A DNA stretch of 64,000 nucleotides, taken from contig NZ_DASSES010000105.1 in the NCBI RefSeq assembly GCF_035695185.1, forward strand, positions 1,107-65,106, written 5' to 3'. The notes beneath the pieces are model-generated. The model made no database searches, was not told the origin of the DNA, and saw only the letters and a list, made by a program, of their open reading frames with translations. Both the position numbers and the translations under genes were made by a program. How positions within the stretch are numbered: the first letter of the stretch is position 1; each line of letters starts with the position of its first letter. Positions 18,580 through 56,504 of this stretch are shown here, one piece after another. The DNA is from Frateuria sp. (GTDB lineage: Bacteria; Pseudomonadota; Gammaproteobacteria; Xanthomonadales; Rhodanobacteraceae).

Positions 18580-18671
18580 TCCGTTTCCCTTAGGATGGTG
18601 CCACCCGTGTGCCATCCGGACCGGGCGTTTGCGCGCGGCCATCCGTCCCAACCACGGGCCAGTCATCGACC

Positions 18672-19568
18672 ATGGACCTACCGTCTCTTCCGCTGCCCGA
18701 AGGTGCGCGGCGCGGCAGCCTCGCCTGCGTCGGCCTGGGCATGACCCTGGGCTCCCACCTCACGCCGCTGGCGCGCAGCCACATCGAGCAGGCGGATGTC
18801 GTGTTCGCCGGGCTCTCCGACGGCATCGTGGAGCTGTGGTTGCAGCGCATGCACCCGGACGTGCGCAGCCTCCAGCCGTACTACGCGGAAGGCAAGTCGC
18901 GCCTGGAAACCTACCGGGAATGGGTCGGGCTGATGATGGCCCAGGTGCGTGCGGGCAAGCGGGTCTGCGGTGTGTTCTACGGCCACCCGGGCATCTTTGC
19001 CTGGTCGCCCCACAAGGCTGTCGCCACGGCGCGGGCGGAGGGGTTCGAGGCACACATGGAGCCGGGGGTTTCGGCGGAGGATTGCCTTTACGCGGACCTG
19101 GGCATCGACCCGGGGCGCTTCGGTTGCCAACACTACGAGGCCAGCCAGCTGCTGCTGTTCGAGCGGCGCATCGATCCGACGGCCTACCTGGTGCTGTGGC
19201 AGGTCGGGCTGGTCGGGGATCGCTCGCTGACCCGCTTCCAGACCGGACCGGCCTATCGCCAGGTGCTGGTCGACCTGCTGAGCCGGGACTACCCGCTGGA
19301 CCACCGGCTGATCGTCTACCGGGCCGCCACGCTGCCGATCGAGAAGCCGCGCATCCGCCGACTGGCCCTGCGCGACCTGCCGCGGGTGCCATTGACCGCC
19401 GAGGAGACGGTGGTGCTGCCGCCGCTGCGGCCGATGCAGCCGAACCTGGCGATTCGGGAGCGCCTGGCCGAGCTGGATCGGGCAAGCCTGCTGGACCGGA
19501 ACGCCGCGGAGGCGTCCTTCGGCGCCCAGGCGGCGGCGAGGCCAGCCACCGACCCGGCAAATGGCTAG
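18672..19568 (+). CDS. Tetrapyrrole-methylase-fold SAM methyltransferase of the borosin (OphMA/SonM-like) peptide alpha-N-methyltransferase type
   Basis: Ordered motifs match what I recall of OphMA/SonM: GSLACVGLGM, YYAEGKSRLETYREW, VCGVFYGHPGIF, MEPGVSAEDCLYADLGIDPG, HYEASQLL, LVLWQVGLVGD, LIVYRAATLP. There are no cob/cys/hem neighbours. ATG 18672 is preferred over the track start 18609. Confidence 0.75.
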   Translation: MDLPSLPLPEGARRGSLACVGLGMTLGSHLTPLARSHIEQADVVFAGLSDGIVELWLQRMHPDVRSLQPYYAEGKSRLETYREWVGLMMAQVRAGKRVCGVFYGHPGIFAWSPHKAVATARAEGFEAHMEPGVSAEDCLYADLGIDPGRFGCQHYEASQLLLFERRIDPTAYLVLWQVGLVGDRSLTRFQTGPAYRQVLVDLLSRDYPLDHRLIVYRAATLPIEKPRIRRLALRDLPRVPLTAEETVVLPPLRPMQPNLAIRERLAELDRASLLDRNAAEASFGAQAAARPATDPANG

Positions 19569-19613
19569 ACTAGCCGCGGCGCGGCAGCCAGGCAGCGCAG
19601 GGAAGGGGGACCG

Positions 19614-19907
19614 ATGTCAGACACGATTGATCTGCTCGAGGCGATCGGCCGCGACGCCTCGCTTCGTCATGCCCCGGCGCATGAACTCCAGCAACGGCTG
19701 CAGGAAGCAGGGGCATCGGGCGCGCTGAAGGCGGCCGCGTCGTCCGGTGACGCCTCGCGGCTGGCCGTCGAGTTCGGCCCCAAGGCCATGTACAGCCCGC
19801 AGACGTCGCAGACTTTCCACGAAGACGAAGGGCTGGGGGAAGAGGAGGGGCCGCCGCCCTTGCCGTCGCCCGACCCCGACTCCGATCACGCTCCCCCCCA
19901 GCCCTAG
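19614..19907 (+). CDS. 97-aa candidate split-borosin precursor peptide
   Basis: Starts 45 nt after the methyltransferase stop, with an SD (AAGGGGGA). The N-terminal helical region TIDLLEAIGRDASLRH...LKAAASSGDASRLAVEF resembles the SonA leader/borosin-binding domain as I recall it. The tail is GPKAMYSPQTSQTFHEDEGLGEEEGPPPLPSPDPDSDHAPPQP. Confidence 0.6.
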   Translation: MSDTIDLLEAIGRDASLRHAPAHELQQRLQEAGASGALKAAASSGDASRLAVEFGPKAMYSPQTSQTFHEDEGLGEEEGPPPLPSPDPDSDHAPPQP

Positions 19908-19917
19908 CGCCATCGAC

Positions 19918-21696
19918 ATGGCCAGGTGGTGGTGCCAGAGTGCGCGACCCGCGCTGGCGGGCCTGTTCCTGTGCACGCTCGCGCATGCCGTCCACGCCGA
20001 TGCCCCGATCGGCGACCCGTCGGCCTTTCTCCAGCAGACCGAGCAGGTACGCACCCGCGACAACGCGCGTTACGTACGGATGCTCGAACAGATCCACCGC
20101 CAGGCTCCGCATCTGACCCCCGCCGAGCAATGGCGGCTGCGTTATCTCGACGCGTGGCAGACGGCTTACCGGGGCGACTACGCCCAGGCCGAGCCGGTGC
20201 TCCGGGATGTCATCGCCCACTCCGGCGACCGCGCCCTGGCCGCCAAGGCATCCGCGCTGCTGATGAGCAACCTGGCGATCAACAGTCGCTACGAGGAGGC
20301 CTTCGCGCTGGCCAACCGGTTGGCCAGTGAACTTCCCGGGATCACCGACAGGCTGGCCCGTTTCATCGTGCTGGCCAATCTGTCGCAGGCGATGAACCTG
20401 GCCGGCGAGCAGGATCTCGCGCTCCGCTACGCCCGCATGATGGAGCAGCGGCTTCCGCCGGGCGAGACGCTGTGCAGTCCGCGCAACATGCAGGCCGCTG
20501 CGCTCGACCAGGCCGGGCGACTGCACAGCGCCAGCCCCGAGCTGACGCGGGCGATCGACACCTGCCTGGCCGCCGGCCAGCCGGTGCTGGCCAACACCAT
20601 GCGACTGGTCAAGGTGCGCCTCTATCGCAACGAGGGCCACCCGCGCGAGGCCCTGGCCTTGCTTATGCGGATCGGTCCGAGCATCCGGGCCAGTCGCTAC
20701 TTCAGCCACCTTCGCGGCGCGCAGTCGGAACTGGCGCTGACCTACGAGAAGCTGGGCGAGGATGACCAGGCCCGCAAGGCAGCGCTGGCCGTGGTGGCGA
20801 TGAGTTCACCGGGCGACGCCAACACGTGGCTGCAGGAGGCCTACGAGCTGCTCTATCGGATCGCCAGGAAGAAAGGCGACACCGCCGCGGCGCTGGACTA
20901 CTACGAGCATGCCGTCGCCCAGGACCGACTCAACCTGAACGACGTCGGTGCGCGGGCGCATGCCTACCAGGTGGTGCAGCAGCACCTCCTGACCCGGAAG
21001 CTGGAGACCGAAGCGCTCAGCAGGCAGAACAACATCCTCAGGCTGCAGCAGGCCCTGGCCACCAAGGCCGCCGAGACAGGCCGTCTGTACAACCTGCTGC
21101 TGCTGGTGGTGCTCGCCTCGATCGTCTTCTGGCTCTTGCGGCTCAAGCGCTCCCAACTGCGCTTCAAGAAGCTGGCCCAGCGTGACAGTCTCACCGGCAT
21201 CCTCAACCACCAGCACTTCATCAGGGAAGCCGAGCGCAACCTGCAGCTGCTGGACAAGCGTGTCGGCCATGCCTGCCTGGTCGTGCTCGACCTGGACCAC
21301 TTCAAGTCGATCAACGACACCCACGGCCATGCGGTGGGCGACATGGTGCTCAAGCGCACGGTCGCCGCCTGCCAGCGACAGTTGCGGCCGGCCGACGTGT
21401 TCGGCCGGCTCGGGGGCGAGGAGTTCGGCATTCTGCTGCACGAGTGCTCCCGCGAGCAGGGGATGGACATCGCCAACCGCATCCGCCTGGCCATCGCCGA
21501 GGCGCCCGACGGGGAGGAGGGGGGCGATGTCGCGGTGTCGGCCAGCGTCGGCCTGGCATCCACCGCCACCTCCGGCTACGGCGTGCAGCGGCTTTGCAGG
21601 GAAGCCGATGCGGCGCTCTATCGCGCCAAGCGCGCGGGGCGCGATTGCGTCATGGGCGATGTCGAGATGGCGAGCGCCCTGGTCCAGGCCCGCTGA
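19918..21696 (+). CDS. Diguanylate cyclase: signal peptide, about 400-aa periplasmic TPR-like sensor, TM helix and GGDEF domain
   Basis: Start at ATG 19918 (MARWWCQSARPALAGLFLCTLAHAVHA). TM helix is LYNLLLLVVLASIVFWLL. The GGDEF domain has RPADVFGRLGGEEFGILL, that is, an RxxD I-site plus GGEEF. Confidence 0.9.
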   Translation: MARWWCQSARPALAGLFLCTLAHAVHADAPIGDPSAFLQQTEQVRTRDNARYVRMLEQIHRQAPHLTPAEQWRLRYLDAWQTAYRGDYAQAEPVLRDVIAHSGDRALAAKASALLMSNLAINSRYEEAFALANRLASELPGITDRLARFIVLANLSQAMNLAGEQDLALRYARMMEQRLPPGETLCSPRNMQAAALDQAGRLHSASPELTRAIDTCLAAGQPVLANTMRLVKVRLYRNEGHPREALALLMRIGPSIRASRYFSHLRGAQSELALTYEKLGEDDQARKAALAVVAMSSPGDANTWLQEAYELLYRIARKKGDTAAALDYYEHAVAQDRLNLNDVGARAHAYQVVQQHLLTRKLETEALSRQNNILRLQQALATKAAETGRLYNLLLLVVLASIVFWLLRLKRSQLRFKKLAQRDSLTGILNHQHFIREAERNLQLLDKRVGHACLVVLDLDHFKSINDTHGHAVGDMVLKRTVAACQRQLRPADVFGRLGGEEFGILLHECSREQGMDIANRIRLAIAEAPDGEEGGDVAVSASVGLASTATSGYGVQRLCREADAALYRAKRAGRDCVMGDVEMASALVQAR

Positions 21697-21733: not shown

Positions 21734-22621
21734 CTACCGGCGCGTCGCCAGCACCCCATCCAGCGCCAGTCGGGTGTTGAAGCCGGCGTTCTCCAGTCGA
21801 CGCGCGACTTCGCGCGGCACGTCGCGGCCGCTGGTGAGCTTGTTCGGGCTGCCGGTGTAGTGGAACAGGCGGCCACCCCGGCGCAGCACGCGGGCGAGCT
21901 GATCGTAGAACGCCTGCGCATACAGTTCGCCGGCGATGCCGAAGCGCGGCGGGTCGTGCAGCAGGGCATCGACCGAGGCGTCGGCCACCTGCCGGATCGC
22001 CGCGGTCACGTCGGCGTGGGTCAGTTGCAGACGGCCACCGGTCGCTGCGGCGTCGGGGTCGGGCGACCACGGGTTGAGGGTGCGCAGCCACAACACGTCG
22101 GGGTTCTTCTCGAACGAGTGGATGCGCACCACACCGGCCTCCAGGCAGCAGCCGGCGAAGTAGCCCAGCCCGCCGCAGGTGTCGAGCACCACCTTGCCGC
22201 GCGGCTCGATGAGGGCCACCTTGCGCCGCGCGTCCTCGACCGGCGAGTCCTTGGCGGTGGGCAGCATCTTGATGCCGTCGATCTCGAAGGTCGGCGCCCC
22301 CCACCCGGTCGGCACCAGCTTGATCAGCGAGCCGGAGAAGCGCGACACCGGTGCGAATGCCTCGCCGTCCCAGTAGTAGACGGTGCGGTCCTTGAGCCGG
22401 GCCGGGTACGGGTAGGACCGGTCCTGCCATCGCCATGCATCCGCGAGCAGTGCCACGTCGGCGCGCGAGCGGTCCAGGTCCAGCGACCCGTGCCATGCGC
22501 CGCTGCCGGCTTCGCGCGCGGCAGCCAGCGAGTCGGCGACCGGGCGGGTGAGCAGTGGACCGGGGTAGTGCGACACGGAGGGCGATTTCCTTGGTGGGGG
22601 CGCGTGCGGGAGCGCGACCAT
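21734..22621 (-). CDS. Class I SAM-dependent methyltransferase
   Basis: VVLDTCGGLGYFAGCCLEAG (SAM motif I) and LLHDPPRFG (the DPPxF/Y motif of N- and nucleic-acid methyltransferases). ATG 22621 is the preferred start; the track ORF begins at 22711. Confidence 0.7.
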   Translation of the reverse strand: MVALPHAPPPRKSPSVSHYPGPLLTRPVADSLAAAREAGSGAWHGSLDLDRSRADVALLADAWRWQDRSYPYPARLKDRTVYYWDGEAFAPVSRFSGSLIKLVPTGWGAPTFEIDGIKMLPTAKDSPVEDARRKVALIEPRGKVVLDTCGGLGYFAGCCLEAGVVRIHSFEKNPDVLWLRTLNPWSPDPDAAATGGRLQLTHADVTAAIRQVADASVDALLHDPPRFGIAGELYAQAFYDQLARVLRRGGRLFHYTGSPNKLTSGRDVPREVARRLENAGFNTRLALDGVLATRR

Positions 22622-22741
22622 AGCGAATCGGCGCCCGGCCGGCCATTCCCGACGGCCAGCCGTCCGTAGGAGTGCACCTGCGCGCGACCGGGATGCCGCT
22701 CCGGGCGACACCGGACATGGCGGTCGCGTTCGGATGAGCTC

Positions 22742-23887
22742 CTACAGGGGATCGGCGGACGCCTGGCTGGACAGCCATCCGTCCGGCGCGAGGCTCGTCG
22801 CCAGCATGACCTCGTTGATGTCCCGATGTGCGGTCCAGGAGAACGCGGCGCGGTTGGCCGGTTCCAGCCAGAACCGGTTGATCGCCGCGCGCAGCGGCAC
22901 CTGCGCGCGCAGGGCGTCGACCGCCGGTCGCAGGCGCCGGTCGTCGGTGGCCAGGCGCTCGATCGCCGCCAGGCCGATGGCCAGGCCCAGTTCCCTGAAT
23001 CCCAGGCGCGCGTCGGCGGGTGCGTAGAGCGGCAACTGGCAGTGGGGCAGGCTGGCCGCCGCGCTTTCGAGGATGTGGCCGAGCAACGCCCGGCAGTGCT
23101 CCGCGCCCGCGCGCACGAGCCGTTCCAGGCGCAATGCGTCCATCAGCAGGCCGCCCAGGCCAAGCGGGTCGCCGGTGGCCAGCGGGCTGGCTTCCAGCAT
23201 GGCGGTGTAGTCCGCAACGGCCTCGTTGAGGGGCGGCGCCGGCGCCTGCAGCGAGGCTGCGGTGGCGCGCAGGACCAGGGTGGTGACCAGCCCGTCGAGC
23301 GCATCGTGCTGGCCCATCGACGCGACCAGCGGACGCGAGAGGTCGGTGCTCATCTTCCAGTACAGGCGCCGATGGCCGTGCACCGCTGCGTGGGTAAAGG
23401 CGCGATGGGCGGTGTCCGCCAGCTCGCATGCCCAGCGGCTTGCTTGAGGTTCGCGGCGGCACCGGGCGGCCAGGTCGAGGGCCTGCATCCAACGGGTCAG
23501 GTAGTGGAAGTACTGGCCGTCGCGCTCCCACTCCAGGCGCTCGTCGACGGGTTCGTCCGGACGGCGCTCGGGCAGCGGCTTGCCGATGCGCAGGCCGGCG
23601 CGGGTCGGGTGGTCATCGCTGGCCTGTCCGCAGCGGCCGGCGAGCCAGCCGCGGCGACTGTCGTCGGCGCGGAAATGGCCCAGCACCGCGTGCACCTGGT
23701 GGATGAGGCGCTGCGCGAGCGCGTCGAATCCGGGCCCCGCGCCGTCCCGCGCCAGGCCGAGGAAATTGCCGACCGCGAAGGCGTCGGTCCACAGGTAGCG
23801 CACCGGCGCCATGTCGGCCGCAAGGCCCGTGCGACGCGCGAACTGCGCCATGAGTTCGATCGCGGCGAGGGTGTCCGGGGCGGGCAT
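22742..23887 (-). CDS. Uncharacterised conserved protein (381 aa), all-helical, family not recognised
   Basis: A coherent ORF from ATG 23887 (MPAPDTLAAIELMAQFARRTG...RYLWTDAFAVGNFLGL...GQYFHYLTRWMQAL...). The codon pattern is consistent with coding. It is on the same strand as, and 120 nt upstream of, the methyltransferase. Confidence 0.6.
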   Translation of the reverse strand: MPAPDTLAAIELMAQFARRTGLAADMAPVRYLWTDAFAVGNFLGLARDGAGPGFDALAQRLIHQVHAVLGHFRADDSRRGWLAGRCGQASDDHPTRAGLRIGKPLPERRPDEPVDERLEWERDGQYFHYLTRWMQALDLAARCRREPQASRWACELADTAHRAFTHAAVHGHRRLYWKMSTDLSRPLVASMGQHDALDGLVTTLVLRATAASLQAPAPPLNEAVADYTAMLEASPLATGDPLGLGGLLMDALRLERLVRAGAEHCRALLGHILESAAASLPHCQLPLYAPADARLGFRELGLAIGLAAIERLATDDRRLRPAVDALRAQVPLRAAINRFWLEPANRAAFSWTAHRDINEVMLATSLAPDGWLSSQASADPL

Positions 23888-24026
23888 GGCGCAAGCCTTG
23901 TCCCGGCCCCCCGAAGGGGGCGTGAAGCCCGGCGGGTGCCGCGACCGGCTTGCCGGGATGGGACGCACCGCAAGAACCGCCCCTCGCCCGCTGTGCCGCA
24001 TGCGGGCAAGGGCCCACAGCCTTCAG

Positions 24027-55706: not shown

Positions 55707-56504
55707 TCAGCGAGCAACGGAGGACGCGACGAACCAGGCCGTCACCGCCAGCAGGTTGTTGACGCCGTGCGCCACCACCGCGGGCCACAGCGAGCCAGAG
55801 CGCAGGCGCAGCCAGGCCAGCGCGGCCGCCAGCAGGACCAGATTGGGCACCGCATACCAGAGGAAGCCCAGATCGGGCAGGTGCACGCAGGCGAACAGGA
55901 GTGAACTGATGGCGACCGCCCAAGCAGCCGGCATGCGCCGCAGCAGCGCCGAGAGCAGCGCGCCGCGGAAGAGCAGCTCTTCCACCAGCGGCCCCAGCGT
56001 GACCACTACCAGCGCCAGCGGCAGCCGCAGCGCCAGCGACGCGGCGCCGCCGATCTGCTTGACGTCCTGGGTGACCTGGTGGCCCTGGGCCACCCAGCGG
56101 GTGAGCCAGCCACCTGCGATCGGAAGAGCCAGGCCGAGCACGATCGCGGCCAGGTAGAACAACGGCCGGCCGGGCCGGGTCAGGCCAAGGCCCGGCGGTG
56201 CGCCATGCGACCAGGCCGCCGGCCAGAGGCGCCTGACCAGCACGATGGTGACGCTCGCAGCCAGCAACAGGGTCAGGATCACCATCATCGCGTTGGTGTC
56301 CGGCTGTGCCAGCACCGTGCGGATGCGTGCGGTCAGGCCCGCCGCCGGCGCCCCTGAGGCGCCCAGGGCGAAGCCCAGCCCGACGCCGACCAGGCCGCTG
56401 GCCAGGAACTGCAGTGCGAAGTACAGGATGATCACGCCGACCGCGCTGCCCAGGTGTGGCAGCCGCGCGTCGTGCAGCGAGGGATGGAGCGGGCGGGAGG
56501 GCAT
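55707..56504 (-). CDS. CPBP family intramembrane glutamic endopeptidase (CAAX/Abi)
   Basis: Motifs are LVEELLFRGALL, FACVHL and HGVNNLLAV. ATG 56504 is the preferred start. Confidence 0.85.
   Translation of the reverse strand: MPSRPLHPSLHDARLPHLGSAVGVIILYFALQFLASGLVGVGLGFALGASGAPAAGLTARIRTVLAQPDTNAMMVILTLLLAASVTIVLVRRLWPAAWSHGAPPGLGLTRPGRPLFYLAAIVLGLALPIAGGWLTRWVAQGHQVTQDVKQIGGAASLALRLPLALVVVTLGPLVEELLFRGALLSALLRRMPAAWAVAISSLLFACVHLPDLGFLWYAVPNLVLLAAALAWLRLRSGSLWPAVVAHGVNNLLAVTAWFVASSVAR

Follow-up and report, generated by a model that had tools for sequence, protein, structure and literature searches.

Gene content of the locus

The window analyzed here is a 64,000-nucleotide stretch of DNA from the soil bacterium Frateuria sp. 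(NCBI RefSeq assembly GCF_035695185.1, contig NZ_DASSES010000105.1, positions 1,107 to 65,106 of the forward strand), and all coordinates given below refer to it. Three consecutive genes on its plus strand were studied, encoding a predicted borosin-type peptide α-N-methyltransferase (NMT), a small precursor peptide and a membrane diguanylate cyclase. Together, these genes probably form a split borosin module, a cluster for a peptide that ribosomes make and that is modified after translation (RiPP) in which enzyme and substrate are encoded separately. The NMT gene (18672..19568) encodes 298 amino acids from its ATG, within an open reading frame (ORF) that opens at a GTG at 18609. The precursor gene (19614..19907; 97 amino acids plus stop) is preceded by a purine-rich, Shine-Dalgarno-like run GGGAAGGGGGA (19600..19610, plus strand), read from the sequence 3 nt 5′ of its ATG, and is followed by the cyclase gene (19918..21696; 592 amino acids). 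As read from the sequence, the three genes share one orientation, with spacings of 45 nt and 10 nt. The first two ORFs, with their spacing and the purine run, had been described from the sequence alone in an initial annotation and were found where it placed them; all six motif blocks that it quoted from the enzyme and both stretches quoted from the precursor were likewise recovered in the translations.

Relationship of the enzyme to borosin methyltransferases

The NMT was compared with PDB sequences using phmmer. SonM, the split borosin enzyme of Shewanella oneidensis, was matched at E 3.8e-77 and OphMA, dbOphMA and MroMA at about 1e-48, while the best precorrin methyltransferase reached only a marginal E-value of 0.033. 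The closest characterized enzyme is SamM1 of Shewanella amazonensis, the sequence of which was obtained from the supplement of bioRxiv 10.1101/2024.01.09.574750, with 60% identity in a gapless alignment over 254 amino acids (E 4e-114). Identity to SonM amounts to 48%, residues 15-265 of the NMT aligning with SonM 2-255. The NMT is a stand-alone enzyme without a fused borosin-binding domain (BBD) and carries approximately 33 low-complexity C-terminal residues beyond the part aligned with SonM. At E≤1e-30, its family comprises 603 representative clusters.

Mutagenesis of SonM has probed Tyr58, Arg67 and Tyr71 as catalytic residues and Tyr93 as a residue binding S-adenosylmethionine (PMC8429565). 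All four are kept in the NMT as Y71, R77, Y81 and Y103, which are accordingly numbered here as its predicted catalytic residues. The lock residues F99, E146 and W166 (SonM numbering) are also kept; SonM Q178 is replaced by Arg and the side clamp is three residues shorter than in SonM. Both motifs of the antiSMASH borosin rule, YGHP and DCL(F/Y)AD (bioRxiv 10.1101/2021.12.24.474128), are present in the translation (VFYGHPGIF and AEDCLYADLG). PF00590 (TP_methylase) was the only Pfam family to match, and NCBIfam tetrapyrrole models scored 11-27 bits against cut-offs of 163-525, the best being YabN (27.4 bits against 525) and precorrin-3B methyltransferase (20.7 bits against 391). The initial annotation had taken the enzyme to be OphMA/SonM-like and not CobA/CysG-like. 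PDB ranking, NCBIfam scores and conserved SonM residues agree with that view, and by sequence the NMT is assigned to the borosin N-methyltransferase clade, not to CobA/CysG.

The precursor peptide

The small ORF is a real, conserved gene. Its homologues number 136 at E≤0.01, their tails varying in length in frame, and its GC content by codon position (0.76/0.52/0.81) resembles that of the neighboring genes, with a coding-type GC content at third positions (GC3). One NCBI entry, from a Frateuria sp. metagenome-assembled genome, is 100% identical to the window protein. No Pfam or NCBIfam family was matched. Column conservation was computed on 196 unique homologues, to which the frequencies given below refer.

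Residues 1-55 (19614..19778, plus strand) are strongly conserved and are predicted to form a five-helix bundle. In the AlphaFold (AF2) model, obtained with a 52-sequence alignment, helices span residues 2-13, 15-18, 22-31, 36-44 and 48-54, with a predicted local distance difference test score of 78-86, followed by disorder. This helix count agrees with the BBD of SonA, the precursor in the SonM cluster, which has five helices in residues 1-53 (PMC8429565). When the model was searched with Foldseek against 350,542 PDB chains, SonA chains occupied ranks 1-4, with a TM-score by target of about 0.58 and a root-mean-square deviation of 3.1-3.5 Å over approximately 50 residues; the accompanying E-values were weak (1-3), which is to be expected of such a small domain.

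The initial annotation had likened this N-terminus to SonA, and the SonA sequence that it gave is an exact match to PDB 7ltc_B. The likeness escaped simple searches and came to light only through structure prediction, Foldseek and extended profiles. With the precursor as a single sequence or as a 46-member family profile, SonA was not hit in the PDB even at E≤10, and a first hhalign comparison of the precursor family with SonA gave only 35-45% probability. Following intermediate sequences, the family profile matched the precursor of an NMT-GNAT cluster (L086, described below) with 97.6% probability (E 2.7e-12), the L086 precursor matched a second type of Dyella precursor, MBE1159848 (E 1.8e-13), and MBE1159848 matched SonA (E 1.7e-6), all alignments of the chain being collinear from residue 1. 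A broadened profile (A4) was then composed by adding verified intermediate sequences, SonA and its close relatives being excluded; with this profile, SonA ranked first in the whole PDB (E 0.028). After broadening, hhalign against the SonA family gave 89.8% probability (E 1.8e-6), gapless over residues 1-59. The model, the Foldseek ranking, the profiles and the column conservation support residues 1-55 as a BBD homologous to that of SonA, which would dock the precursor on the NMT.

The BBD is followed by a linker and predicted core (residues 56-69, PKAMYSPQTSQTFH; 19779..19820, plus strand), the predicted site of backbone N-methylation. A segment H/Q-K-P-M/N-x-x-P62-Q63-x-x-Q66-x-G-H69 is conserved here, with G or F at position 68; P62 is kept in 85% of the homologues, Q63 in 80% and Q66 in 70%. 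The methylated residues of SonA are L63 and I65 (PMC10549244), which in a gapless alignment fall on Q63 and S65 of the window precursor, within P62-Q63-x-x-Q66. SamA1, the precursor in the SamM1 cluster, is methylated once, at F52, two residues before its acidic tail (bioRxiv 10.1101/2024.01.09.574750); by analogy, methylation would be placed at T67/F68, just before H69-E70. Both analogies point to residues around 60-68 as the candidate methylation site.

Residues 70-97 (19821..19904, plus strand) form an acidic, proline-rich C-terminal tail, delimited by composition and family conservation. From H69 on, the 29 residues include nine Asp/Glu, nine Pro and no Lys or Arg. Family-wide, an acidic run at positions 70-79, the E70-E73 run within it, and P80, P84 and P86 are kept. 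In these respects, the tail resembles the anionic tail that is released from SamA1.

The diguanylate cyclase

The third gene encodes a TPR-TM-GGDEF diguanylate cyclase with a signal-peptide-like N-terminus, a TPR-like sensor region of approximately 360 amino acids, one transmembrane (TM) helix (residues 387-412; 21076-21153, plus strand) and a GGDEF domain (residues 420-576; 21175-21645, plus strand). The latter carries an RxxD I-site and a GGEEF motif (21412-21426, plus strand). The protein matched Pfam GGDEF (4e-38) as well as TPR models, and NCBIfam TIGR00254 (2.4e-42). We infer that the TPR sensor region is periplasmic. The protein aligns collinearly over residues 53-579 with the cyclase of the son cluster, SO1480 (E 6e-34). 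Among the domains that accompany split borosins in their clusters, GGDEF is the most frequent (56%), and both arrangements, with cyclase and NMT separate or fused, have been described before (bioRxiv 10.1101/2021.12.24.474128).

Conservation of the three-gene module

Gene neighborhoods were compared in 80 Rhodanobacteraceae loci. This survey, proposed in the initial annotation as a check on the pairing, placed the precursor directly 3′ of the NMT gene, with position and strand kept, in 77 of the 80, and a cyclase homologue next after the precursor in 78; enzyme, precursor and cyclase stay together in about 76-78. The wider flanks (miaB, phoH and a lytic transglycosylase gene) vary across the loci and are not co-conserved with the cyclase, and the synteny downstream of the module in the window agrees with that in other Frateuria loci. 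When all ORFs of the 80 loci were clustered, no conserved protease, exporter or tailoring gene was found. The initial annotation had noted no protease, transporter or other tailoring gene beside the pair; the cyclase gene does, however, follow the precursor directly, and such a gene is a typical companion in clusters of this kind. Genes for a peroxiredoxin-like protein, an M61 peptidase, a LysR protein and a GH30 protein were considered as module parts and rejected, as their presence reflects genus-level synteny in these loci.

Co-divergence was compared in the 75 loci that have all three genes. A partial Mantel test gave r 0.41 between the precursor and the cyclase sensor. The co-divergence signal of the trio was judged non-specific because the slowly evolving NMT is a coarse control for phylogeny.

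Proposed function and alternatives

We consider it likely that the locus is a three-gene RiPP module of the Type IV split borosin class, akin to son and sam, that works as follows. The NMT, assumed from its solved homologues to dimerize, would bind the five-helix N-terminal BBD of the 97-amino-acid precursor. Using S-adenosylmethionine, it would methylate one or two backbone amide nitrogens at around residues 60-68, near P62-Q63-x-x-Q66, as homology and position suggest. The modified precursor would then probably be cut by a protease encoded elsewhere. As to the outcome, we tentatively favor one as in the sam system, in which the anionic, proline-rich C-terminal peptide is released and the methyl mark acts as cleavage signal. 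Though far from assured, it appears the most likely outcome because SamM1 is the nearest characterized enzyme and SamA1 has a similar tail. The initial annotation had regarded the product as unpredictable, a view now overtaken by the precedents of SonA and SamA1.

The membrane cyclase is co-inherited with the two other genes, and other bacteria encode it as a fusion with the methyltransferase. For this reason the module would most likely act on cyclic di-GMP (c-di-GMP) signaling, or be governed by it, and would not be an antibiotic cluster. A self-contained circuit from peptide to c-di-GMP, in which the methyl mark licenses release of the tail (or of the methylated peptide) and the TPR domain senses the peptide, or the cyclase is modulated from the cytoplasm, is a further step that we hold to be rather unlikely.

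Several observations weigh against this interpretation. Methylation is itself something that we infer for this pair, as for any pair from the Rhodanobacteraceae, and the hydrophobic patches of SamA1 (VFCVFF-P, methylated and cut) and SonA (YLVIS, methylated) are replaced here by a polar segment of P, Q, S and T. The precursor resembles SonA and SamA1 only weakly: SonA went undetected when a single sequence or the first profile served as query, and hhalign of the family against SamA1 covers the first helix only (E 0.018), so direct homology of the cores is not claimed. No match to a SamP-like protease or a GNAT acetyltransferase was obtained in the 64-kb window; in the 80 loci, SamP gave no match and GNAT two weak, distant matches only. 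Among the best 120 of 246 SamP matches, the named homologues are almost all from Alteromonadales, and none is named as Rhodanobacteraceae. The sensor domains of the window and Shewanella cyclases are not significantly similar when compared alone (E 1.4), and therefore only a shared architecture is claimed. Finally, co-divergence is to be expected for any genes that are inherited together.

Two other fates of the precursor were weighed. By analogy with shewanellamide A, the product might be a linear peptide that keeps its N-methylated residues, housekeeping proteases excising it from the stretch beyond the BBD, possibly along with the acidic tail. The gene order is that of the son cluster, which likewise has no protease (PMC10549244), neither SamP nor GNAT is present here or in S. 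oneidensis, and the conserved PQxxQ aligns with the SonA methylation sites. However, the enzyme is nearer to SamM1 (60%) than to SonM (48%), the acidic tail conserved in this family has no equivalent in SonA, and the core is polar where SonA has YLVIS; we regard such an outcome as somewhat unlikely. The methylated protein might instead stay intact in the cytoplasm and regulate the co-encoded cyclase, directly or via the methyltransferase, no product being secreted. No protease or exporter is conserved with the module, in Type X fusions the methyltransferase sits at the end of the cyclase that is predicted to be cytoplasmic, the trio co-diverges, and the tail prolines are conserved as those of a binding epitope might be. 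Yet both characterized bacterial relatives are proteolytically processed (PMC10549244; bioRxiv 10.1101/2024.01.09.574750), the large sensor domain of the cyclase appears to be periplasmic, not cytoplasmic, and interaction with the cyclase is a supposition, which makes an intact regulator improbable.

More basic objections concern the identity of the two genes. An ordinary tetrapyrrole (precorrin/siroheme) methylase beside an unrelated small ORF could be read from the sole Pfam match, PF00590, and the weak NCBIfam matches to YabN and precorrin methyltransferases. That reading is refuted for practical purposes and retains very little credence: the tetrapyrrole scores stay at 11-27 bits against cut-offs of 163-525, borosin enzymes are matched at E 1e-48 to 4e-114, the borosin-specific catalytic residues are present, and the enzyme gene keeps both the small ORF and the GGDEF gene as partners across loci. 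GC-rich genomes yield many long spurious ORFs, several of which overlap this region, and the 97-amino-acid ORF, which lacks a Pfam or NCBIfam family, might be a chance ORF of this sort. The conservation data refute this notion, to which we give practically no weight, since the ORF has 136 homologues, since its place and orientation are unchanged in 77 of the 80 loci, with in-frame tail variation and domain-like conservation, and since its GC3 is coding-type, its helical fold is confidently predicted and it is homologous to SonA.

The initial annotation had called backbone N-methylated RiPPs rare in bacteria, which does not hold for the clusters at the genome level: mining of split borosins first gave over 1,600 clusters and later over 2,500 bacterial ones (the latter in bioRxiv 10.1101/2024.01.09.574750), and Xanthomonadales made up 22.5% of the early matches. 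The locus is a further example of an already catalogued cluster type, real and not very surprising, and adds little chemistry that is new in kind. In the literature, no paper was found that names Rhodanobacter, Frateuria or Luteibacter in a borosin context, nor any experimental study of a member of this precursor family. To our knowledge, there are only two bacterial split borosin systems with a known processed peptide, neither of which has a known biological role.

What the Rhodanobacteraceae offer is a minimal three-gene unit: enzyme, peptide and membrane diguanylate cyclase are passed on together, and the protease and acetyltransferase that closer relatives have are missing from it. Because several genera are cultivable (Dyella, Rhodanobacter, Luteibacter and Frateuria), the family is a practical place to ask what lies behind the frequent association of borosin clusters with c-di-GMP enzymes. 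If methylation holds true, these enzymes would accept a broader range of substrates than known so far, the PQxxQ core being polar; if the circuit does, borosin chemistry would serve cell signaling across a bacterial family and not the making of antibiotics.

Module variants, flanking genes and other features of the window

Variants of the module were observed among related loci. In Frateuria sp. GZRR35 (L045:3157-7145), a multi-precursor variant combines two methyltransferase genes with a tandem array of eight precursor genes; of the encoded precursors, seven are 81-82 amino acids long and have no acidic tail, and close to their C-terminus stands Q(V/T)(M/I)WRE. In GCA_015665025.1 (L086:2721-8730), the gene for an NMT-GNAT fusion of 452 amino acids, whose NMT shares 67% identity with the window enzyme, precedes those for a 144-amino-acid precursor and then a GGDEF protein, with an S9 prolyl-oligopeptidase-family gene two genes upstream. 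The L086 precursor consists of a BBD, an acidic proline segment and a long lysine-rich tail. A contig labeled Candidatus Eremiobacteraeota (L012, CAJCJD010000072.1) carries a Dyella-like module with an NMT 81% identical to the window enzyme and a precursor nearly the same as that of Dyella lipolytica (L003); the contig is probably mis-binned in its metagenome-assembled genome (MAG).

Two copies of the module per genome were present in Dyella humi (L004/L071), Dyella nitratireducens (L041/L075) and the MAG MFD05537 (L006/L072). In both Dyella pairs, all three genes differ between the copies, and a tail rich in His and Pro (HTHPRPPHHPF) marks the second type (L071, L075). Duplication and divergence therefore appear to affect the module as a whole.

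Downstream of the module, a class-I S-adenosylmethionine methyltransferase gene lies at 21734-22711 on the minus strand (similar to PDB 8vyd, E 6e-43). The same gene adjoins the three-gene module in both Rhodanobacter and Frateuria. Among the Rhodanobacter loci with this neighbor (L029, L035, L053, L056 and L058), several have it directly upstream on the same strand, and in Frateuria loci (L025, L038, L042, L045, L052, L055 and L057) it is downstream and convergent. Both placements would follow from the module having been inverted at a single site of the chromosome. Next to it, a 419-amino-acid ORF (22742-24001, minus strand) with coding-type GC3 (0.89) had no match in Pfam, NCBIfam or PDB. 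The ORF occupies a gap of approximately 1.4 kb between the class-I methyltransferase gene and ligD, and looks like a strain-specific insertion of a gene without assigned function because these two genes are adjacent in seven other Frateuria loci.

Further along, ARAGORN reported a 90-nt tRNA-Ala(GGC) at 55958-56047 on the minus strand. An Rfam scan of the window gave no matches, and at this site no tRNA was matched at the gathering threshold, nor at E≤1 on a 401-nt slice; the ARAGORN call is probably a false positive.

Comparison with known systems

The sam cluster of Shewanella amazonensis (SamM1/SamA1/SamP; bioRxiv 10.1101/2024.01.09.574750) has a precursor laid out like the one described here: a helical docking domain at the N-terminus comes first, then a short segment, methylated in SamA1, and an acidic, proline-containing tail. 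Judged from primer names, it also ends in a GGDEF gene. In SamA1, a single methylation is needed for the cut by the pepsin-like SamP, which frees the anionic, unmethylated tail (bioRxiv 10.1101/2024.01.09.574750). Unlike the sam cluster, the window module has no pepsin-like protease (SamP) or GNAT acetyltransferase nearby, and the SamA1 patch VFCVFF-PAEDEP is set against a polar PQTSQTF-HEDEG in the window precursor, the similarity between the two precursors being barely detectable.

Complete sam-type clusters outside Shewanella were observed on two soil metagenome contigs of 67-69% GC (L082:679-5519 and L083:441-5256), with the gene order pepsin-like A1 protease, GNAT, NMT, precursor of 91-96 amino acids and GGDEF. 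Their NMTs share 65-66% identity with the window enzyme, and acidic tails of the type VLCFVA-PAENDEP close their precursors. Because these relatives carry the full set of genes, the window module gives the impression of a sam-type cluster pared down to three genes, its core being different and polar.

The son cluster of Shewanella oneidensis (SonM/SonA/SO1480), the product of which is shewanellamide A (PMC8429565, PMC10549244), has the same gene order, with proteins of 263, 71 and 596 amino acids compared with 298, 97 and 592 in the window, and a protease is absent from both. It has an extra KefB-type transporter gene, and SonA stops right after its hydrophobic core (YLVISHGNGD) without an acidic tail, whereas the window precursor has one.

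The same three functional parts recur in Type X borosins, which are TPR-TM-GGDEF-NMT fusions found mostly in Xanthomonadales (bioRxiv 10.1101/2021.12.24.474128). In these fusions of approximately 845 amino acids, the NMT domain is about 50% identical to the window NMT and the N-terminal part is collinear with the window cyclase; P0187, P0188 and P0192, found outside the window, are true fusions of this kind. In the window, cyclase and NMT are separate and the precursor gene lies between them, whereas at the Type X locus examined a BBD-type precursor, closely SonA-like with 47% identity, is encoded upstream, adjoining the fusion gene.

The Dyella acidiphila precursor WP_192556624.1 (P0083; MSDTIELLETIGRDASLRH...PQGTLGPCHEEDEPDQDD...) is a direct homologue of the window precursor, with 47% identity, and was scored as a valid borosin precursor in a published RODEO dataset, in which it was mined only. 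More distantly, OphMA and the other fused fungal borosins share a homologous methyltransferase fold and the same catalytic Tyr/Arg/Tyr logic. OphMA carries a BBD-like clasp and the core on the same chain as the enzyme and is methylated at many residues, whereas the substrate in the window is encoded by a separate gene.

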